IMG/VR virus record: IMGVR_UViG_3300032074_000002
Span: 7,526-71,525 of that record
Source of the DNA: a virus
Taxonomy: Duplodnaviria; Caudoviricetes
DNA length: 64,000 nt
Reading direction: 5' to 3' (one strand)
The notes beneath the pieces were generated by a model. That model saw only the letters and a program-made list of their open reading frames with translations, ran no database searches and was not told where the DNA came from. The translations under genes were made by a program, and so were the position numbers. Below, in pieces: positions 47,760 through 58,194 of the stretch (positions within the stretch are counted from its first letter, which is position 1; each line of letters starts with the position of its first letter).

Positions 47760-48045
47760 CATGGACCGACTTGAGCGAGACACCGCCGACGAACTAGCTG
47801 ACGAAGAGTTCAGTACCCGCAAGCACTACTCGCGGTCTACCTACAAGGACGGGTGCCACGGGCCGCTGTGCCTGAAGGCCGAACGTGACAAGGCAGCTCG
47901 GCGTTACCGGGCCAGAAAACCCGATAAGGACACCAAAGAACGTACTGCTTGGCAGATCGCCCGGGATAGCTACCTGGAACATGTGATCCAGCAGTACGGC
48001 CTGCGCTCTGAAGCGCAGGCCCGTACAATGGCAGAAGCTGTCTAG
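47746..48045 (+). CDS. Hypothetical protein (H...Y..GC...C motif)
   Basis: Overlaps helicase end. Confidence 0.7.
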   Translation: MKMTDMDRLERDTADELADEEFSTRKHYSRSTYKDGCHGPLCLKAERDKAARRYRARKPDKDTKERTAWQIARDSYLEHVIQQYGLRSEAQARTMAEAV

Positions 48046-48069
48046 TAAGCCCCATGGGGGTCTAGCCAG

Positions 48070-48225
48070 TCATCTACGAACAGCTGCCACCAAGTTCTCA
48101 GTCTGCTGAACACTGGCCTTCCTCCTCTCCATAACCTCGGCCTGTCGGATTGACCGTCCTATGATGACGGCGACCGGCAGGCCGAGCGCTACCCAGATCG
48201 CTGCACCGATGATGAACCAATACAT
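48070..48225 (-). CDS. 51-aa membrane peptide (not in track)
   Basis: MYWFIIGAAIWVALGLPVAVIIGRSIR...; ATG directly after previous stop. Confidence 0.65.
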   Translation of the reverse strand: MYWFIIGAAIWVALGLPVAVIIGRSIRQAEVMERRKASVQQTENLVAAVRR

Positions 48226-48486
48226 TCAGTCCTCCACTGCTGCGGGATGAGCCGATGCGCCCTCGTGTAGCCAGGGCGTGACGACTAGGAAGTTGCCTTC
48301 GATTGTGTACTCACGGGCCAACTTGCCATGGCAAATCGCACATGACCCGCTAACCAGAAGTTGTTCTGCGCCTGGCATGTCTCGCTTGGAGAGTGCCCAG
48401 CGGTGGCGACGAGTCGCTTCAAGTTCTTCGGCGCTCGGTGCTTGCCTCTGCTCCGGAAGTGTGATGGTTTCTGCTGCGGTTTGCAC
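48226..48486 (-). CDS. Hypothetical protein (CAIC...H)
   Basis: GAGGAGG RBS before GTG. Confidence 0.7.
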   Translation of the reverse strand: MQTAAETITLPEQRQAPSAEELEATRRHRWALSKRDMPGAEQLLVSGSCAICHGKLAREYTIEGNFLVVTPWLHEGASAHPAAVED

Positions 48487-48634
48487 ACTGCCTCCTCGTT
48501 ATGAGGCGGGAGGTGGACTCGCCCGTCCGATAGTTCACACCGTTTGCTGTAACTCTTAAACCGGGTGTTCCACCAACACCCGCAGGGGTAAAGCAGGTGC
48601 CCATCGACCCATGGGGGGCGCGGACGCCGCTGCC

Positions 48635-48946
48635 CTAGCATCGCTCGCGGGGCTCCTGTCGGGAACCCCCAATCGGCCAGGATTCTCCCGACGCGGATCG
48701 GTGGTCGCCCCTGTGGTGGTAGATCTCGAGGCACGGATCGAGCTGAGTGGGATCGCCACATGCGACACCGGCACACCAGATGCAGACCAGACTCGTGTGA
48801 CACTTGCCGTGCCAGTTGTACGTGTACAGCCGCAGGTCGTGACGAGCGCCGGGCACGTCCACGCAGGCGATGACCTCTAGCTCGCCAGCGTGACGAAGCT
48901 TCTCGTGGAAAATGCCGTTCTGCTTGGTCATCTCATCAGGAGTCAT
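48635..48946 (-). CDS. Cys/His-rich hypothetical protein
   Basis: MTPDEMTKQNG...CIWC; overlaps upstream gene end. Confidence 0.65.
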   Translation of the reverse strand: MTPDEMTKQNGIFHEKLRHAGELEVIACVDVPGARHDLRLYTYNWHGKCHTSLVCIWCAGVACGDPTQLDPCLEIYHHRGDHRSASGESWPIGGSRQEPRERC

Positions 48947-49217
48947 CACTACCGAACACCCTTCCCGCTTTACAGCTCTTGCAGGTGACAGCTTCACGAA
49001 ACCCCATGTAAGAGTACACGCCATTCTTGGAGGGCTTGCAGCGCAATCGCCACTCGCTCACCGTCTGGCCATTCACATCTCTGAGATGCTCCACGAGAAC
49101 GTGCATCAGGTGACTACCGTTGTAGGTGTGCGAATCAACTCCCGCAACCTTGCCAACCGGTAGCTTGACCTTTACTTTAGTCCGCAAATAGCTATTGCGG
49201 CTGTCAATCCCAGGCAT
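48936..49217 (-). CDS. Hypothetical protein (C...CKSC)
   Basis: TGATG coupling with upstream ORF. Confidence 0.65.
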   Translation of the reverse strand: MPGIDSRNSYLRTKVKVKLPVGKVAGVDSHTYNGSHLMHVLVEHLRDVNGQTVSEWRLRCKPSKNGVYSYMGFREAVTCKSCKAGRVFGSDDS

Positions 49218-49369
49218 CAGTCAGATTCCAACGAACGAAGATTTGACCGAACCAGCTTGTGAAGATCTTCTTCGTCAAAAGGCAATGCCAACTGGCCCTC
49301 GACAGGCCATACACTGGCTTGCTGTGTAACGATCTTGACAACACAGGGATTACAGTGATCGCTGTCCAT
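49217..49369 (-). CDS. 50-aa peptide containing QLALPF (not in track)
   Basis: MDSDHCNPCVVKIVTQQASVWPVEGQLALPFDEEDLHKLVRSNLRSLESD; GGGGGA RBS. Confidence 0.55.
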   Translation of the reverse strand: MDSDHCNPCVVKIVTQQASVWPVEGQLALPFDEEDLHKLVRSNLRSLESD

Positions 49370-49470
49370 AACTTCCCCCGAGGGTCCGATAGTTCTATGT
49401 GATGCGCTCTACCATAGTCTACTGCAAAATCCCCGGAAGAGCGCTGAAAACACTATCTGGAAAGGAACTA

Positions 49471-49647
49471 TTACTGAGATTCCTGTGCTGCCCGAACTTT
49501 CTGTTCTTCCCTCACCAGATAGTCGCGGTACGGTGTCTGGTCGATGAACTTCGGATCTGTAGGTCGGTACACCGGCAGACCCTGCCGCAGGCGCTTCTCA
49601 TCTGCAGCAGAGTCTACTGGCAGGCCGGCGTGGCCCATGATGTCCAT
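49471..49647 (-). CDS. 58-aa hypothetical protein (not in track)
   Basis: ATG directly after holin stop. Confidence 0.55.
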   Translation of the reverse strand: MDIMGHAGLPVDSAADEKRLRQGLPVYRPTDPKFIDQTPYRDYLVREEQKVRAAQESQ

Positions 49648-50064
49648 TTAGCGCCACTCGTGCCCAGGGTTCGTAGCGGGTGCTGACAAGCTGTTCTTGT
49701 CGGCAGCTCGCCGGAGCAACTTGGCGCGGAGCTTCTGATCTACGATCTCTTCGATGAGCTGCTCCATAGCCGGGTCGATCCCCAACTTGGGTGCCTCATT
49801 ACGGATCGCATACACCAGTACAGCCCCAACGAAGCCTGATCCAATCCCGTCCCAGAGACTCGCCCACGTCAGAGTATGCCAGTCGAACGACACAATCGCA
49901 GGGGCAAGCCCCGCGAGAGCCCCGGAGGCCACAAAAGCGATCACTGCTTTACGGGCGCGGGCAATCCACGCACGAACGCCGGTAGAGGGATCGTTGGGAG
50001 CGGCGTGGTCGGCCACTCCGTCGCGCTGCTTCGCCCGTTCCAGGCGGCTGATGTGCTGAGTCAT
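49648..50064 (-). CDS. Holin-like two-TM protein
   Basis: RKAVIAF...two TM helices; downstream of endolysin. Confidence 0.75.
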   Translation of the reverse strand: MTQHISRLERAKQRDGVADHAAPNDPSTGVRAWIARARKAVIAFVASGALAGLAPAIVSFDWHTLTWASLWDGIGSGFVGAVLVYAIRNEAPKLGIDPAMEQLIEEIVDQKLRAKLLRRAADKNSLSAPATNPGHEWR

Positions 50065-50066
50065 GT

Positions 50067-50600
50067 TCAGTCTCTCCCTGGGACATGGCAGATCATGCCA
50101 ATGTAAGCAAGGTCCCCTGGTGTGACCTTGCCAGCTGGACGACCATCCTCGAAGATGTGGAGTCCCTGGTTAAGGTAAATCGCATCCACAGCCTGAGAGC
50201 AGATCAACGCCTTGCTTCTCGCAACTGCACTGCCCAAGGGCGTACAGTTCCAGTGAACAAGGTCGAGTGCGATGTACGGATACGTCAGCCAGCCGTAGGA
50301 GACGCCCTTGCGACTGCGAGCATCCTCCACGATGCCCTTGCGGACAGCTGGGTCCATGTTGTTCTGAGACCACGCGATCGGCCCCTTTCGTGCGTACAGT
50401 TCTTCGAGAGTGCGGATCTTCGCTCCGCCCGGTTCCGCCTCGAAGATCTGACCGTTGTCGAGCATGATCCCGGCATGACAGTATCGAGACCAGTCACCGA
50501 CTAGCGCTTGTCCGACCCGAATCCCCAGCCCGGTGACACCTCCGACTTGTGCGACGAAGAAATCACCGGGCAGGGGGACCGGGACCGCAAGGTCCGTCAT
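50067..50600 (-). CDS. Permuted papain-like NlpC/P60 hydrolase (YiiX/YebB-like)
   Basis: PGD...HAGI...EA...GVSY...LICSQAV...VTPGDL, with His before Cys. Confidence 0.85.
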   Translation of the reverse strand: MTDLAVPVPLPGDFFVAQVGGVTGLGIRVGQALVGDWSRYCHAGIMLDNGQIFEAEPGGAKIRTLEELYARKGPIAWSQNNMDPAVRKGIVEDARSRKGVSYGWLTYPYIALDLVHWNCTPLGSAVARSKALICSQAVDAIYLNQGLHIFEDGRPAGKVTPGDLAYIGMICHVPGRD

Positions 50601-50615
50601 GGGTTCAGAACCATG

Positions 50616-51515
50616 TTACGGCCGCGCGAGGCGGTCGTAGTCGTCAGCCCAGATCTGCTCCGGGTAAGGCTGGCCGGAGTAGAACCTGTTGTGCCAGATC
50701 CGCGCAGCCTGCGTGCTGTACGGAGCCTGGAACTTTCCATCAGCCCAGCCGGAGTTCTGCCAGGAGCTAGCGGGAACCGACGTGCAGTCGTGGTAAATGA
50801 GCCACTGCTGCACGTTACGGACGAACGGCTGCTCCGAGGGGTAGAAGCCGCCATGCGAGGCGGCAGGACCCTTGATGTCTCCGACGTACCCACCCTTGCC
50901 GAACGGCCACACCAGGCGCGGGGGAGTTGCAGGGGAAGGTGGTGGCACAGGAGACGGGCCAGGCTGCGGCACGGGCTGGGCGCCACTGAGCAGCTCCATG
51001 AACTTGTCCCACGGGAAGTTCGGTCCTGGGTCCCAGTGAGTTGACTGGTGCCAAGCCTGTGAGACATCGACATGCCCACAGATACCGTGCTTTCCGGCCA
51101 GGAGGTCCGCGACCGACAGCTTGACCTTCGGGATCTTGTATCGGTCACAGAGGTCATTGGCACGCGCCGCAGCCTTCTCGACGGCAGGCCAGACCCGATC
51201 GTCGAGCCACTGCTCGCGAGTGAAGGTCGGCTCGCTGGCGATCTCGATGCCCAGCGAGTGCTCGTTGGGCGGCGCGTGCCAGGCGATGGTGTCCTCGGGG
51301 ACGCAGTGCTCCTCGTTGGCGTCGTCCACGACGTAGTGGGCAGAGCCACCAGTCGAGGGGCGCGCGAAGTACTCCGCGACCGAGTGAGCCATGCCCGACG
51401 CACTGGCTCCAGGGAAGCCTCCACCGACAGTCGAGTGGATGACCACTCGAGTCGGAACGAGGTTACCCTGTCCCGAGTCGTTGGCGGCTCGGACGGTGAT
51501 CTTCGGTTCACTCAT
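50616..51515 (-). CDS. Endolysin: N-acetylmuramoyl-L-alanine amidase (Amidase_2), Pro linker, putative cell-wall-binding domain
   Basis: VIHST, SAHYVVD, AWHA, SLGIE, GHVD, HWDPGPNFPW. Confidence 0.93.
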   Translation of the reverse strand: MSEPKITVRAANDSGQGNLVPTRVVIHSTVGGGFPGASASGMAHSVAEYFARPSTGGSAHYVVDDANEEHCVPEDTIAWHAPPNEHSLGIEIASEPTFTREQWLDDRVWPAVEKAAARANDLCDRYKIPKVKLSVADLLAGKHGICGHVDVSQAWHQSTHWDPGPNFPWDKFMELLSGAQPVPQPGPSPVPPPSPATPPRLVWPFGKGGYVGDIKGPAASHGGFYPSEQPFVRNVQQWLIYHDCTSVPASSWQNSGWADGKFQAPYSTQAARIWHNRFYSGQPYPEQIWADDYDRLARP

Positions 51516-51527
51516 GTTCTCTCCTTT

Positions 51528-52718
51528 TCAGGCCTGGTTCTTGCGCCAGGCCAGATACGCCTCACAGAAGGCATCCAGCTGGGAGTACGGGAACGGGTTA
51601 TTCTCCACGGGAGGCTCGGGCGTCGGCTCGGGGGTAGGAGTCGGAGTCGGCGTCACGGGGGGCTCTGGTGTGGGGTCAGGCTCAGGGGTGGGCTGAGGGG
51701 TCGGCTGGGGCACCGGCTGCTGCGCCTCCTTGAGCTTAGCCAGCATCAGCGCCCCATCAGGCACGCCAAAGCCGGTCACCTTGTCGCGGCCCGGACCTGC
51801 ACGGAAGGCCCCGTTGCTGCCTGCCGTCACGTCGAAGCAGACACCCGGATTTGCCAGGATGGTCTTCTGGAAGTCGAACGGGCCGACTAGGCTGCTCAGA
51901 TTTACACTGAGTGCGGCCATGAGTGGCGCCACGGCAGATGTCCCGCCGATGACGACCTGCTGGCCGTCCACGGTGATCTCGTAGCCGGTCACCGGGTCGG
52001 CATTGCCCGCGATGTCAGGCACCGCGCGACCGGGGAAGACCACGCTGTCTCCGCCGCCCGTAGCCGAGGTGCGCGAGTTGTCGTTCCAGGTGACCTCGCT
52101 GGTCCTTTGGCCCGCCGGGTTGACCTGCAGCCTGGTGCCACCGCAGGCGACGACGTTGGGGCTGCTGGCCGGAAAGTCCACATGGTTGCCGGTCTCGCCG
52201 TCACCAGACCCCTGGTCACCTGAGGCGCAGAACACGTTGATGCCCGCGAGCTTGCACAGGCTAAACAGCGTGTCGTACTGCTTGCAGGTGTTGGTGTCCC
52301 AGGAGTCTTCCGGGCCACCCCACGAGCAGCTGATAGCGTCGCCGCTCTTGAGGTTCTTGAAGCACCAATCGAAGGCGTCATAGAAGCCCTGGTCGGTGTT
52401 GGGACCGAACACGACGACGACGTGCGCCCTGGGAGCCGCCTCGAGGACGACCTCCACGTCGAGCATGACCTCGCCGTCAGCCCCATTGGGGCCGTCGCTG
52501 ACAGGCTTGATCCCGTCCGTGGTGGCGATAGTGACACGGCTGGCGTCACTGACCTTGAGGTCAGCCTTGTTGACCGCGCCTCCCAGCTCGACGATAGCCA
52601 CAGTGCGGGGCTCTGCACTGGGCTCGGGGAAGTTGTACGCAGATGCAACTTGAGCGGCCGTCAGTGACCGCGTGGCTCCGCGCGGTTTGACGATGTTAAT
52701 GCCTCGCTGTGCAGACAA
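51528..52718 (-). CDS. S53 sedolisin/kumamolisin-family serine-carboxyl peptidase, no prodomain or signal peptide
   Basis: AIVELGG, GEVMLDVE, ISCSWG, ASGDQG, FPASSPNVVACGGT, GGTSAVAP, DVTAGSN...DKVTGFG. Confidence 0.92.
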   Translation of the reverse strand: MSAQRGINIVKPRGATRSLTAAQVASAYNFPEPSAEPRTVAIVELGGAVNKADLKVSDASRVTIATTDGIKPVSDGPNGADGEVMLDVEVVLEAAPRAHVVVVFGPNTDQGFYDAFDWCFKNLKSGDAISCSWGGPEDSWDTNTCKQYDTLFSLCKLAGINVFCASGDQGSGDGETGNHVDFPASSPNVVACGGTRLQVNPAGQRTSEVTWNDNSRTSATGGGDSVVFPGRAVPDIAGNADPVTGYEITVDGQQVVIGGTSAVAPLMAALSVNLSSLVGPFDFQKTILANPGVCFDVTAGSNGAFRAGPGRDKVTGFGVPDGALMLAKLKEAQQPVPQPTPQPTPEPDPTPEPPVTPTPTPTPEPTPEPPVENNPFPYSQLDAFCEAYLAWRKNQA

Positions 52719-52772
52719 GGGGTGGTCCTTTTCTGTGAGATGTCTGTGCAGTCTGACAGGATAGGCTCGCTG

Positions 52773-53198
52773 TCAAGGGCTAGCGGGTGGTGTGGGCGGC
52801 GTGGGCGGGATGATCGCGCCTGTCAGCGTCGCATGGTCGGTGAGCCCAGACATGACCATCCCGAAAGCGTTGAGCATCCTCAGGATGATCTGAGTACGCT
52901 CAGTATCAGTAAGCAAGTTCCAGCCTGCAGTCACGGCTGCGATATCAGCCTGCAGTTGTGCCTGAAGGTTCGCGGCCTGAGAGAAGATCCCCTCAATACC
53001 CTGCTGGGCTTGGGTAAGAACTGGAGGCAGAACAACAGCAGCCTCGTGCCAGGCAGAGTCGACAGTTAGCTCCTCGGGAGTGGCGGGTCTCCGCTCGATC
53101 TCGGCACCGTCTTTCCAGTGGACCCAATCGGTGCCGTTGTCGTCTACTCCCCACCATTCAGTGACCGTGCCGTCGTCTGCGGTGATCTGAGTCTTCAT
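52773..53198 (-). CDS. Fibre-associated or chaperone-like hypothetical protein
   Basis: Follows fibre genes; AAGGA RBS; helical C-terminus. Confidence 0.65.
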   Translation of the reverse strand: MKTQITADDGTVTEWWGVDDNGTDWVHWKDGAEIERRPATPEELTVDSAWHEAAVVLPPVLTQAQQGIEGIFSQAANLQAQLQADIAAVTAGWNLLTDTERTQIILRMLNAFGMVMSGLTDHATLTGAIIPPTPPTPPASP

Positions 53199-53206
53199 AT
53201 CTGTCC

Positions 53207-53986
53207 TTACGGGAAGATCTGAGTTGAGCCGACGTACATCTTACTGACAGGATTGGCCCCTACGTAAGCCTTCGCCAGGGTGACAGCTCCGACCTTGGCA
53301 TTGTTGAGTGTACTAGCCGCAGCGTTACTCGGGATAGCGATAGTGTAACCAACACCAGTTGCTGCAGCAGAACTTGCGCCAGTTTCGCCGCCGTATGTAC
53401 CAGCTGCGCCAACAATCTTGAACTGATACTCGATCGACATGAACGGCGAGGCATCCCCAGCGACTACCCTGCCACCTTGGGTGTACCCCGCCAGGAGGCC
53501 GACGTCTGGCACTGACGATGCCGAGCGGTAAGCAAAAGCCACTGCCACTAGTGCTCCAGCTGGTACGTTGGCAATCGACGGCACGGGCTCGTTAGTATTA
53601 CTGGCCGTGTCGATGTTGGTGGCAGTTAGTACACCTGTGCCTGTTACTCCAGAGTATACTTCCATCTCGGCTAGACACTGAGAGGCCACATTGAAGTTGA
53701 TTGTCACCGATCCGGCAGAGATATCACTGGCATCCAGCTGCTTATAAAACAGCCACGCTACGCTGTTGCCACCGTTGACATCACCGACTGAATTCGGGCA
53801 AGTCCACCCTGTCGGTACGCTTACGAGACCAGTTGTAGGCTTGAGTGATTGGGCAACCAGTACAGCCTCATTGCCAGCCTGCGCTCCCGCAGGAATCGGC
53901 ACGGTAAGACTGCTAGCAGTAGCTGTGCCACTGCCGGAGGTGACACTCGAGGATCCGACGTATGTGGGCATCGACTCAGCCGACAA
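53207..53986 (-). CDS. Minor structural protein, beta-sandwich-like
   Basis: S/T/G/A-rich; VPIPAG..AG...LV..PTGW pattern. Confidence 0.7.
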   Translation of the reverse strand: MSAESMPTYVGSSSVTSGSGTATASSLTVPIPAGAQAGNEAVLVAQSLKPTTGLVSVPTGWTCPNSVGDVNGGNSVAWLFYKQLDASDISAGSVTINFNVASQCLAEMEVYSGVTGTGVLTATNIDTASNTNEPVPSIANVPAGALVAVAFAYRSASSVPDVGLLAGYTQGGRVVAGDASPFMSIEYQFKIVGAAGTYGGETGASSAAATGVGYTIAIPSNAAASTLNNAKVGAVTLAKAYVGANPVSKMYVGSTQIFP

Positions 53987-54743
53987 TCAAGTACAGCGTG
54001 TTAACATCCGGCGTTGCCAGCGCCGTGAAGTTAGCCTGGGTGATCTGAACGACGTTGGTGATTCCAGTACCAGTCACCATGCCGGGGTGTGTGTGATTGC
54101 CAGCGGCAGCTTGCTGTGAACCAGTGCCCAGGGTTCTAATAGATGCGGTACCTGCGGCCTGATCAGCAGTAACTCTGGCGTCGTTACCCTGGACTGCAGT
54201 GCCAGCCGCTGCGCCGTACTGGACACTCAGCGTCCGGTCGGCCGAGAGATCCCCACCTCCTGACAGGCCAGTACCTGTAGAAATCTGCCGGGCTGGCAGT
54301 ACAGCTGGCGTGGAAACCGTCAAGAGGTTGCCAGCGTCGTCGTAGGTAAGTGTGATACCAGTGCCAGCGACCAACAACGCCGCCACAGTATCCTGTACAG
54401 ACTCGGATAGGTCTGCAATATCTGCCGATACCGGCTTCCAGTCGCCAGCCTTGGCAGTGCCAGCGGTAGCACCCAGCACCAGACTACTGGTGCCTGCGCC
54501 AATGTCTCCGCGGGCTGTGGCTGCGTCCGGTGCAGTCAGAACTGATCGACCCACCGCCGAACTGTCAGTAATGCTTGCAGCGGTGATTGTGCCCCCGCCG
54601 GAGGAGGGGGTGACCCATACGGTGTCATAGTCGGAACTACTAGACTTGGCCAACACTTGACCAGTTGTGCCGCCAGCTTTAAGCGCCACTAGCGGCAGCA
54701 AGAGCTGGTCAATCTTTTCCTTAGTGTACGTCAGAAAACTCAT
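53976..54743 (-). CDS. Tail fibre-like minor protein
   Basis: GGTTGQVLAKSS, AVGRSVLTAPDAATAR, ITQANFTALATPDVNTLYLI repeats typical of actinophage fibres. Confidence 0.75.
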   Translation of the reverse strand: MSFLTYTKEKIDQLLLPLVALKAGGTTGQVLAKSSSSDYDTVWVTPSSGGGTITAASITDSSAVGRSVLTAPDAATARGDIGAGTSSLVLGATAGTAKAGDWKPVSADIADLSESVQDTVAALLVAGTGITLTYDDAGNLLTVSTPAVLPARQISTGTGLSGGGDLSADRTLSVQYGAAAGTAVQGNDARVTADQAAGTASIRTLGTGSQQAAAGNHTHPGMVTGTGITNVVQITQANFTALATPDVNTLYLIVG

Positions 54744-54813
54744 TTAGTTTCCCTCGCTAACTAGTTGGAATATCGGGGTGAGTGACACACAGCGGCCCTT
54801 TAGTGGCAGCAGG

Positions 54814-57165
54814 TCAGGCGAAGCCGAGGGCCTGGAACTTGGCGTAGACCTGATTGGCCACGATCGTGTAGCCGGGCGCGAGCAGGTGGACGCCGTCGTA
54901 GCGCAGCGACGTGGGGACGGTGTCGTTGGCGATGTCGGCGGTGTCCTGCGTGGTCGGGGTGATCCCGGCGTCGGCGAGGCCGTGGTCGATCAGGTACCGG
55001 CGGACGTCGAAGAACCGGTCGCCGTAGATCGCGGCGAGCTGCTGGTTCAGAAAGACGATCTGGTTGTAGCCGACGCCGCCCAGGTACTCGGTGGTGAAAC
55101 CGCCGTTGTGGACGCCGATGATCACGTACTTGCCGGTGGTGCAGACGGCGACCATCGCGGCGATGTCGGCCAGCACCGTCGTCGGGTCGGCGTAGTTGTT
55201 GTGCCCGGCCCAGATCAGGAAGCTGGAGCCGGGCAGCGCCCCGCCCAGGTCGAAGGTGACCGGCACCGACCCGGCGGCGGGGACCGCGCTCCCGGCCTCG
55301 TGGCGGGTGAAGGTGCCGCCGACGTGGAACGTGCCATGCACTCCATTCAGCGAGCCGGAGAGGTCACCGCCCTGCGCCGACGGGACGCCCGTGGACGTGG
55401 TGACCGACACGACCCCGGAGGCGGGGATCGACCCGCCGGTCACGGTCGCCGTGGCGGCCACCGCACCGGCCCGGTTGGCGATCTGGGTGGAAATCTCGCC
55501 GCCGACGCCGAGGTTGCGGATCGTCTTGCCGATCAGCCCGCCGAGCACGCCCGGGTAGTTGGTGCCGCTACCGCCGGTGCCCGCGGTCAGCGAGTCGCCG
55601 AGCGCCGCCCACTGGCCGGTGTCGGTGATCGACGCGAAAGTCGTGGTCACGACGACGATGCCGGTGCCGCCGTCGCCACCCTTGCCGGAGTTGTTCCCGT
55701 TGAGCGCCGCGCCACCTCCTCCACCACCGCCGCCGGGCTTGCCGCCCTGGGCGCCGGCCTGCGCCGCGCCGGTGATCGACGCCGCACCGCCGCCACCGCC
55801 CGGGGCGGGCAGGGTGACCGACGGGGCATCGAACGTCGAGGGGGCCGCGCCGCCCACGATCCCGGCCTGCCCGGCCTGGTTCGAGGTGAACCCGGTAGCG
55901 CCCGCTCCGCCGCCGTTGGAGGCCGCGTCGGCGGAGGTGATGCCACCACCGGCGGCGCCGCCGGTGCCCATGTACTGCCCGTTGGTCTGCGACCCGGTGC
56001 CGGACGAGCCGCCGCCCGCGCCGCCGGTGGTGGAGGCCGCGCCGCCGCCGAGGGACTGGCCGATGCCGCCGACGAAGTTGTTGCCCGCGCCGCCCGCACC
56101 TGCGGCGTTCGTGCCGCCCGCCCCTGCTGCGCCACCGGCGACCGTCCGCACGTACAGGCCGAAGGAGGAGGTCCCGCCCGCCGCACCGGCGTTACCGTTG
56201 GTGTCGTTCGCGGTCACCGCCGCACCCCCGGCGCCACCGGCGCCGACGGTCACGGCCACCGTGTCCGTCAGGTCCGAGCCACGCAGCACGACGCGCGACA
56301 TGGCGCCGGACGCGCCGCCGCCGCCGCCGCAGCGCACCGTCCCGGCGGCGCCGCGACGACCGGAGCCGCCACCGCCACCGCCGGAGATGGCCACCACCTC
56401 GACCGACACCGCGCCCGCGGGCCGGGTCCAGGTGCCGGAGGTGGTGAACACCTGAATGTCGGCCGGTCGGGGGTAGTGAGCGTCATAGGCCGCCCCTAGT
56501 GTCACTCGGGCGGTACTACTACCATCCTGCAAATCCCCCACTGTGACGACATCACCAGTTGCGATACCGTCAGTGAAAGTCGCTGTTCCGTCGCCGTTGT
56601 CGGTGATCTGAGTCGTCGGCGTCCAGCCCATGTCGTAATCAGCTGCAGTCAGCTTGACAGCGACTTCACCAGGATTACCCCCAGCAGGCATCCCAATCCC
56701 AGGAGGACCAGGATCACCAGGCGGCCCAGGTAGTCCTCGCTGGATGATAATTCCGGGGCTAACCGCGACCGGCGTCAGTTCGGCCAAGTCGTAAATGAGC
56801 CCCGATTCACCCGAGAAGTCAAAGCTAGCCTTGGTGTACTTGCCGACCTTGAAGACGGCCTGCCACGTCCAAGCTTGGGTCGTGAGCCCCGAAGAGTTTG
56901 GGCAAATCAGCGTAACCCAGGAGTCACCCTGAGCGTTTCGCAGGATCCCATCGGCTTCGACAGTTGCGGTAACACTGTCCAAGAAGAGGCTAGCGTTGCC
57001 GTCAGTCGACAGAAGAGTGTTCTCAGTTACTCGGGGCGTAAAGGTAACAGTCCCGCCCACAGGGAGAATGTCCGGCAGATCGTCGATGTCGTCGGTCGCA
57101 TCTGCGACGCCCTGAAGAGTCTTCCACGTCACCCTGAAGGTGTCGAGCCCCTGGGGCAGTGCCAT
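54814..57165 (-). CDS. Tail fibre/receptor-binding protein: baseplate-anchoring N-terminus, collagen triplets, Gly-rich domain, C-terminal SGNH/GDSL hydrolase
   Basis: GLPGPPGDPGPPG; poly-G/A segment; ALGDSLT, NLGVGGE, AGHNN, DGVHL. Confidence 0.85.
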   Translation of the reverse strand: MALPQGLDTFRVTWKTLQGVADATDDIDDLPDILPVGGTVTFTPRVTENTLLSTDGNASLFLDSVTATVEADGILRNAQGDSWVTLICPNSSGLTTQAWTWQAVFKVGKYTKASFDFSGESGLIYDLAELTPVAVSPGIIIQRGLPGPPGDPGPPGIGMPAGGNPGEVAVKLTAADYDMGWTPTTQITDNGDGTATFTDGIATGDVVTVGDLQDGSSTARVTLGAAYDAHYPRPADIQVFTTSGTWTRPAGAVSVEVVAISGGGGGGSGRRGAAGTVRCGGGGGASGAMSRVVLRGSDLTDTVAVTVGAGGAGGAAVTANDTNGNAGAAGGTSSFGLYVRTVAGGAAGAGGTNAAGAGGAGNNFVGGIGQSLGGGAASTTGGAGGGSSGTGSQTNGQYMGTGGAAGGGITSADAASNGGGAGATGFTSNQAGQAGIVGGAAPSTFDAPSVTLPAPGGGGGAASITGAAQAGAQGGKPGGGGGGGGAALNGNNSGKGGDGGTGIVVVTTTFASITDTGQWAALGDSLTAGTGGSGTNYPGVLGGLIGKTIRNLGVGGEISTQIANRAGAVAATATVTGGSIPASGVVSVTTSTGVPSAQGGDLSGSLNGVHGTFHVGGTFTRHEAGSAVPAAGSVPVTFDLGGALPGSSFLIWAGHNNYADPTTVLADIAAMVAVCTTGKYVIIGVHNGGFTTEYLGGVGYNQIVFLNQQLAAIYGDRFFDVRRYLIDHGLADAGITPTTQDTADIANDTVPTSLRYDGVHLLAPGYTIVANQVYAKFQALGFA

Positions 57166-57312
57166 AACTTTGGGTCCAATCTGACTCGCGTGCGCGTGCG
57201 CTCAGGTTACTCGACCCGTCCAGCATTGGCATATGGCACAGATTAACAGCCCCAACCTGGCAATCAGCTGTGGGTGATACAGGTGAGAATCCATTTCATG
57301 ATCCACATGATC

Positions 57313-57880
57313 TTGGTCGAAGAATTGGTCAAAGAATTATGACATTGGTCGAAAAATTATTGGGGTTTCTAAACTACGTTCCTTTCAGGCTGTCCTCATC
57401 CGGCCAAAACCAGTCCTCAGGGGGTAACTTTTTGGATGATCTACAAGGGATACAGTCTGTCGGCACGCCTTGTGGTGGTTTCACCACGACTTACCTGCAT
57501 CGTCAGTGCCACTGGTACCGGGAACCGGCTATCAAGATCAAATAGTTTCTCGACCAGCCGGTCGAGAAACTCCCGATTTGGTCGAGAAACTACGGGGGCC
57601 GGTCGGGGAACGTTTCGCAACCTAGTTTCGCAACCATTTCTCGACCTCCTAAAAGCGCAGGTCAACACGGCGATTCGGGGGTTTTTTGATTGTTCGACCG
57701 AGCGTCGCTTACACACACACACACACGGGGTCGCTCACACACATCCGGGGCGTTCTTACACGGGGTCCGGCCGTTGGGGGGGATGCCGGTCGAACTAGTC
57801 TGTTTAGTCGAACAATTCGCTGACCTGCGGTTATGTTAAACGATCATGGTCGATAAACCCGTCCATCAGGTCAAAGAATA
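57313..57880. repeat. Iteron-like GGTCRA[A/G]AA repeat cluster (~13 copies, both orientations)
   Basis: TTGGTCGAAGAATT 57313, TTGGTCAAAGAATT 57325, TTGGTCGAAAAATT 57345, TAGTTTCTCGACCA 57543, GGTCGAGAAACT 57560, TTGGTCGAGAAACTA 57578, TTTCTCGACC 57637 and others. Confidence 0.75.
57711..57726. repeat. (AC)8 microsatellite
   Basis: Direct reading; followed by ACACGGGG-type repeats. Confidence 0.9.
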
Positions 57881-57901
57881 GTGAAAGAATCCTCACGTAG
57901 G

Positions 57902-57950
57902 TAAATAAATTAAAAAAATCACTCTATATATATATATAAGAGAGCTTATA
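57902..57950. other. AT-rich tract with a (TA)n run, candidate unwinding element
   Basis: TAAATAAATTAAAAAAATCACTCTATATATATATATAAGAGAG in a GC-rich genome. Confidence 0.6.
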
Positions 57951-58194
57951 CTCAAGCTCTCTGAGAGTCTGCGAGTGTTCTTGTACAGAGTCTCTCTAGT
58001 TCTTGGGAGACTAGACTCTATGACAGGGGGCTATGGATGGGGAAGATAGCTTTGCTGACCCTAGAAGGAATAAAGGGCGACAAAAAGTTTTGTGTGCGTC
58101 GCTTGTGGTCAAAGGGCGCGCGGCGTACCGGGGGTCTGGATTTTCTGACCCGGGGGCATACGCCCCGGGGGTATGCCGTTTGCATGGGGCATGC

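Follow-up and report, generated by a model that had tools for sequence, protein, structure and literature searches.

The window analysed here, which comprises 64,000 nucleotides, the greater part of an IMG/VR virus record of 71.5 kb with an estimated completeness of 93%, carries in its lysis cassette a gene for a kumamolisin-type peptidase of family S53 that has neither a prodomain nor a signal peptide (51528..52718, minus strand; 396 aa, TTG start). Sedolisins are the textbook case of proteases whose folding and inactivity both depend on a large prodomain. The phage protein belongs to a large, phage-specific prodomain-less clade. The protease family is known and so is the type of cassette; the form and the role are undescribed. 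It probably acts as a holin-dependent accessory lytic protease, the target of which would be a peptide or protein of the actinobacterial envelope. We base this reading on the absence of an export signal, the apparent co-transcription with the endolysin and holin genes, the existence of holin fusions and the strict conservation of the catalytic residues.

The TerL of this phage is 50–54% identical to TerL of Rhodococcus and Gordonia phages, and the amidase domain of its endolysin is 58% identical to Cutibacterium phage endolysins; the host is therefore taken to be a member of Actinomycetota. On the minus strand, three tail fibre or minor tail genes (53207..57165; 783, 255 and 259 aa) lie 5' of the protease gene and are followed by a 141-aa ORF, the S53 gene, with which the lysis cassette opens, the endolysin gene, the gene of a YaeF-like enzyme and the holin gene, the first-pass annotation having described the order from S53 to holin correctly. 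The endolysin (50616..51515, minus strand), composed of an Amidase_2 domain, a Pro-rich linker and a C-terminal domain of ~95 aa, starts 12 bp past the S53 stop codon. The next gene encodes a YaeF/YiiX-type permuted papain-like enzyme of 177 aa (50067..50600, minus strand; phrog_1128), and the last one a 138-aa putative holin that has a charged tail besides its two hydrophobic segments and matched no family (49648..50064, minus strand). From the tail genes to the lysis genes no promoter- or terminator-like site was found on the coding (minus) strand; the sole terminator-like site in the tail-to-holin stretch is located on the plus strand, so the coding strand is uninterrupted.

Two further observations were made in this region. 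A terminator-like hairpin with a 12-bp stem lies at 57544-57571 (minus strand), just 5' of the first tail fibre gene, and is the only minus-strand site of this kind within 48000-58000. The YaeF-like protein is ~40% identical to proteins of 113 large Streptomyces phage genomes whose genes are labelled 'peptidase' or 'cysteine protease', and the PHROGs name for its family, enoyl-CoA hydratase-like, is probably wrong.

In a phmmer search of the PDB the best match of the S53 ORF was kumamolisin-As (1sio, E 1.9e-63), residues 18–337 of the query being aligned to residues 5–364 of the mature enzyme. The AF2 model has a mean pLDDT of 86 and a pTM of 0.80, with pLDDT below 50 for residues 1–15. Foldseek searches with this model returned kumamolisin for all of the top matches (E 1e-32, TM 0.82, rmsd 2.2 Å), and the predicted structure has the subtilisin-like alpha/beta fold by which MEROPS recognises S53. 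The Ser-Glu-Asp triad and the oxyanion Asp are represented by S261, E83, D87 and D168 (codons 51936-51938, 52470-52472, 52458-52460 and 52215-52217, minus strand), which align to S278, E78, D82 and D164 of kumamolisin; E83 and D87 are found within GEVMLDVE, D168 within SGDQG and S261 within GGTSAVAP. E44 (52587-52589, minus strand) and W133 correspond to the extended kumamolisin network, and the Ca site (D296, V297 and G308-P-G-R-D312) aligns to kumamolisin DI...GPGWD. In an alignment of 30 clade members that are 47–80% identical to the query, the catalytic residues together with E44 and W133 are invariant, and the Ca site is invariant or nearly so. The early claim that the ORF contains all the kumamolisin catalytic motifs and the C-terminal Ca-site residues is borne out by the alignment, and, judged by its sequence, the phage protein is a kumamolisin-type serine-carboxyl peptidase with intact catalytic residues. 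Its only Pfam match is Peptidase_S8, and no PHROGs family was matched. Neither Pfam and PHROGs searches nor tblastn in 50,697 phage records revealed a catalytic domain of a known muralytic class.

The catalytic domain (residues 18–330; 51729..52667, minus strand) is followed by a Pro/Thr-rich linker (residues 331–372; 51603..51728, minus strand; pLDDT about 60) and by a C-terminal tail (51531..51602, minus strand) that is predicted to form an amphipathic helix over residues 378–393 and contains a conserved Trp followed by basic residues. A variable form of this tail is found across the whole clade. The motif QPVPQP was said to occur in the linkers of both the protease and the neighbouring amidase, and it is indeed present in both. 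A wider kinship of the S53 tail and linker with the amidase C-terminus was rejected, as there is neither a DNA repeat nor a BLASTP alignment between them. Foreign acquisition of the gene was also rejected: its GC3 of 0.80 (genome mean 0.725 ± 0.084) falls among the values seen for other late genes.

Linker-plus-tail layouts of this sort are also seen in endolysins with a wall-binding module, and LysA of actinophages has a modular build and is in some cases split. With the S53 gene situated directly 5' of an amidase-only endolysin in the window, it is conceivable that the protein is a true endolysin module, namely a peptidoglycan endopeptidase cutting stem peptides or interpeptide bridges as the peptidase arm of a split LysA. 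We regard this as unlikely, although it deserves to be kept in mind. The neighbouring endolysins of related loci already possess peptidase domains (M15_4 in L162, L002 and L016; NlpC/P60 in L023). The S53 C-terminus, with its conserved linker and short amphipathic Trp helix, matches no known wall-binding domain, and across the clade the tail is a short helix of 25–50 residues in which no such domain can be recognised. To our knowledge, the S53 fold has no peptidoglycan-cleaving member, and we know of no subtilase-fold or S53 enzyme that cuts the D-amino-acid or iso-peptide bonds of peptidoglycan.

That the ORF starts ~17 residues before the mature-enzyme motif, and thus encodes no activation prodomain and no signal peptide, had been claimed in the first-pass annotation and was confirmed; there is no room upstream. 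The open frame comprises 414 codons from stop to stop, of which 18 lie 5' of the TTG start, and a Shine-Dalgarno sequence, AAGGA (52726..52730, minus strand), was read from the sequence 7 nt 5' of this TTG. In phmmer, residue 15 of the query aligns to residue 190 of pro-kumamolisin 1t1e, and as the match begins at this residue, the entire prodomain is absent. A six-frame translation of the window contained no prodomain when compared with a profile built from the extensions of 72 cellular homologues (best E 3.4), and PF09286 (Pro-kuma_activ) gave 0 matches in the whole 71.5-kb virus record. A prodomain encoded upstream and a frameshift were both looked for, and neither was found. The 17 N-terminal residues (52668..52718, minus strand) contain on inspection no hydrophobic stretch and so no signal peptide. 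The RR-containing N-terminus was considered as a possible Tat/Sec signal and rejected, also by inspection, as no hydrophobic region follows it and the segment enters the folded domain directly.

This short N-terminal segment is a remnant of the pro-enzyme linker. In the window it reads NIVKPRGATR, the clade consensus being x-I-R-R-P-R-A-A, and P12 is at least 90% conserved. The cellular pro-enzyme linker preceding the mature domain reads G-L-D-x-R-P-Q-A-x-P-H-F-R-x-A-K-P-H-A, where PHFR corresponds to residues 170–173 of 1t1e. The phage N-termini match this linker from about H-F-R onward with identical spacing; Pro at -6 is common to both, and His at -12 is kept in several phage members. With Met at -15 to -18, the phage ORFs begin 3–6 residues before the PHFR-equivalent position of the pro-kumamolisin linker, and in the window Met is found 5 residues before the position equivalent to His171p of 1t1e. 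We take His171p-Phe172p to be the autocatalytic activation cleavage site of pro-kumamolisin. If this is so, the phage genes would encode, nearly exactly, what the first activation cut yields.

The missing prodomain is the one point that would speak for the protein being an inactive remnant or a passenger without any role in the phage cycle, since canonical sedolisins need the prodomain to fold. Such an explanation is extremely improbable in view of the invariance of the catalytic and Ca-site residues in 30 clade members at 47–80% identity, the conserved architecture and the existence of thousands of homologues.

The number of S53 homologues found amounts to 7925, the best 120 of which are nearly all 370–430 aa long and free of PF09286; 161 of the 266 retrieved proteins have no N-terminal extension, and the closest homologues (P0002–P0004) are 74–76% identical to the query. 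A tree computed from 196 catalytic domains places the query in a clade of 34 members with an SH-like support of 99. No extension is present in 31 of these, the remaining three have an N-terminal holin-type TM fusion, and a prodomain is found in none. The cellular homologues, 79 loci fetched from species-representative genomes, mostly of Acidobacteriota and Actinomycetota, share no more than 46% identity with the query. Every one of the 79 has an N-terminal extension of 108–334 aa that matches the prodomain profile, itself derived from 72 of the 79 extensions. A single loss of the prodomain over the whole S53 tree is unsupported, as the label 'none' needs at least 11 changes; some of the short forms outside the 34-member clade are probably truncated gene calls, and only this clade is clean for the absence of the prodomain. 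Its members share one architecture: 15–20 residues with the x-I-R-R-P-R-A-A consensus, the catalytic domain, a Pro-rich linker and a helical tail of 25–50 residues ending in the conserved Trp and then basic residues. In two of the fusions, P0011 and P0015, a Phage_r1t_holin domain is located N-terminal to S53 (E 8.7e-12 and 3.2e-16, respectively), and in P0054 two TM segments occupy this place. All three fusions keep a longer linker, D-T-Q-E-x-P-R-V-x-A-H-S-Y-I-R-R-P. As a separate observation, four low-GC contigs of giant-virus MAGs (GVMAG; L043, L046, L048 and L049) encode S53 relatives of 33–38% identity with N-terminal extensions of 77–115 aa.

The 141-aa ORF (52773..53198, minus strand), which occupies the place between the last tail fibre gene and the S53 gene, had been suggested to act as a chaperone in trans. 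This suggestion found no support. The ORF has no similarity to the prodomain profile, Pfam or PHROGs and matches nothing in deposited phages; among 5.8 billion proteins a single homologue turned up, a weak and partial one (52% over 38% of the ORF length). No homologue of it adjoins S53 in any other locus compared, so this ORFan is neither a prodomain nor conserved together with the protease.

The association of the S53 gene with lysis genes, in contrast, extends beyond the window. Synteny was compared in IMG/VR loci and one JGI contig (L162), with genes called by a crude caller. Of the 16 distinct loci that come closest to the query, with the window and L162 counted, 11 encode an endolysin or holin within three genes of S53; by a rough estimate an endolysin would be met within three genes of a random phage gene in about 1 case in 10. 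The linkage to lysis genes, the lack of which in relatives would have spoken against the lysis module proposed earlier, is therefore conserved. L162 has the same order as the window, with an M15_4+PG_binding_1 endolysin in place of the Amidase_2 one and a YaeF-like gene and a holin gene following. In L002, S53 is followed by a 110-aa TM protein, a 506-aa endolysin and a 2-TM protein, and in L004 by an Amidase_2 protein that ends in an r1t-holin domain. An r1t-type holin is encoded two genes 5' of S53 in L005, with a tail fibre or minor tail gene downstream, and GH25 endolysins are found near S53 in L007 and L008. In L010 the order runs from a minor tail gene through S53 to a LysB-type gene and a holin gene. 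L016 has a fibre gene, S53, a 134-aa ORF, LysA (M15+GH19), LysB (70% identical to lysin B of phage Aminay) and a 3-TM protein, while a Mycolicibacter contig, L023, has S53, LysA (NlpC/P60+GH25), a 133-aa ORF and a LysB-type gene. In L028 a GH25 endolysin gene precedes S53, which is followed by genes for a 121-aa and a 3-TM protein. No lysis gene could be recognised near S53 in the remaining five close loci (L003, L009, L011, L012 and L014), and in a wider set of 43 short-form viral loci one was recognisable in only about a quarter. Clustering of the neighbours at the sequence level yielded almost no shared families, and the Pfam and PHROG tallies on pooled neighbours give counts only.

Two side observations concern the neighbouring genes. 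The 369-aa ORF directly 3' of S53 in L004 (L004:8092-9201) contains Amidase_2 (44–182) and Phage_r1t_holin (298–366) and is an apparent endolysin-holin fusion, unless the ORF call merged two genes. The proteins of 110–134 aa encoded between S53 and LysA in L002 and L016 (L002:8295-8627; L016:8270-8674) have one hydrophobic segment, belong to phrog_6229/phrog_3888 and have no match in deposited phages.

The comparison of the window with L162 is the most instructive. The two are collinear over 7.9 kb, with 75% identity for S53, 83% for the YaeF-like protein and 76% for the holin, but the endolysin between them differs: L162:905-2062 (M15_4 + PG_binding_1) stands where the window has 50616-51515 (Amidase_2). 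The S53 gene was thus kept while the endolysin was swapped, and it is therefore an independent, retained unit of the cassette. As it accompanies peptidase-bearing endolysins and LysB, it represents an addition to these enzymes rather than a substitute for them. The presence of S53 beside five endolysin architectures and differing fibres also makes a maturation protease for the endolysin or the fibre, as had been offered in the first-pass annotation, unlikely.

The position of the gene at the boundary of the tail fibre and lysis genes would by itself be compatible with a role in the virion, where a tail-associated protease belonging to the upstream tail module could serve entry or fibre processing. 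Tail fibre or minor tail genes are found directly upstream of S53 in the window, L010, L012 and L016 and downstream of it in L005; the 783-aa fibre includes a short collagen-like Gly-X-Y run, and kumamolisin-As is known to cleave collagen. Nevertheless, we consider this role improbable: the S53 domain is fused to holins and not to tail proteins, it has no tail-attachment domain, lysis genes flank it in L028 and L005, and the fibres vary among the loci while S53 is conserved.

The distribution of the family is peculiar. In IMG/VR, 101 viral loci encode an S53 relative, whereas tblastn found no homologue in 50,697 records of cultured phages, among them more than 2,000 from Mycobacterium phages with a LysB. 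We found no paper linking sedolisin, kumamolisin or S53 to phage lysis. The absence of the gene from the cultured phages searched and its frequent occurrence in metagenomic ones suggest that laboratory isolation conditions hid it. This pattern might also be expected of an enzyme working after lysis in acidic habitats only, which would break down protein receptors or matrix on cell debris and neighbouring cells or free trapped virions. An acid-type protease without an export route of its own can exit the cell only at lysis, and the titles assign many of the cellular homologues to bog or peat MAGs. The fusions with holins and the close packing of the operon, however, indicate action at the membrane or wall just as lysis occurs, and a purely post-lysis function appears to us hardly probable.

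Returning to the holin-dependent lytic protease, which we favour, the course of events may be pictured as follows. The protein would be made as a cytoplasmic late protein from one transcript with the tail fibres, the endolysin, the YaeF-like hydrolase and the holin, and is assumed to fold without a prodomain. Known sedolisins are acid-active. The chemistry of S53 requires protonated Asp/Glu, and the enzyme would accordingly be harmless in the neutral cytoplasm; we see this acid dependence as the simplest explanation of its latency, to which the 17-residue linker remnant may add. Access to the envelope would be gained only once the holin opens the membrane, and the protease would then attack peptide or protein parts of the actinobacterial envelope, adding to the action of the endolysin (and LysB) of the phage. 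For the substrate, an envelope or wall-associated protein would be our first choice and the peptidoglycan peptide the second. In the fusions the holin stands in the place of the prodomain, and self-release of the protease at the linker kept there is conceivable.

Compared with kumamolisin and kumamolisin-As (MEROPS S53; 1gt9 and 1sio, pro-form 1t1e), the phage enzyme is ~40% identical and has the same fold, Ser-Glu-Asp triad, oxyanion Asp, Glu32/Trp129 network (kumamolisin numbering) and Ca site. It differs in lacking the ~188-aa prodomain and the secretion signal, in a catalytic domain that is ~40 residues shorter, in the added Pro/Thr linker and helical tail, and in being encoded by a phage within a lysis cassette. 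A similar design, by analogy and not by membership, is met in the intracellular subtilisin proteases (ISPs, MEROPS S8) of Bacillus, which have a subtilase fold, are cytoplasmic and lack a classical prodomain. They carry only a short conserved extension at the N-terminus, and its removal frees the active site that it had blocked. A PDB entry named 'intracellular serine protease', 7y6m, is a weak match to the phage protein (E 0.0024). The ISPs, however, have an Asp-His-Ser triad and the LIPY/F motif, in contrast to the Ser-Glu-Asp triad and I-R-R-P-R-A-A of the phage clade, and they are cellular housekeeping enzymes.

The closest parallel in function may be sought among the accessory lysis proteins of actinophages, such as the mycolylarabinogalactan esterase LysB and Gp1 of phage Ms6, encoded upstream of lysA. 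Like these, S53 is an extra non-muralytic gene inside a lysA-holin cassette, and in L016, L023 and L010 it accompanies LysB-type genes. Unlike them, it has the fold and chemistry of a protease, not of an esterase or chaperone, and none of the cultured phage genomes searched (50,697 records) contains it. One may go further and see in S53 a fourth, proteolytic arm of actinophage lysis, which would fold without a chaperone, remain silent at cytoplasmic pH, be released or tethered by the holin and cut envelope protein beyond the reach of the endolysin and LysB, mainly in acidic soils, the holin having replaced the prodomain in some phages. We put this fuller scheme forward tentatively, as a possibility that may well fail in one of its parts.

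If true, a large natural prodomain-free S53 clade would offer a ready system in which to study how the subtilase fold forms independently of a prodomain. It would likewise supply compact acid proteases, which as a class have already been engineered for gluten degradation. In phage biology, a protease would join the muralytic endolysins, the LysB esterase and the spanins among the known lysis enzymes, and its presence would point to a component of the Actinomycetota envelope that must be cut for the release of phage progeny.
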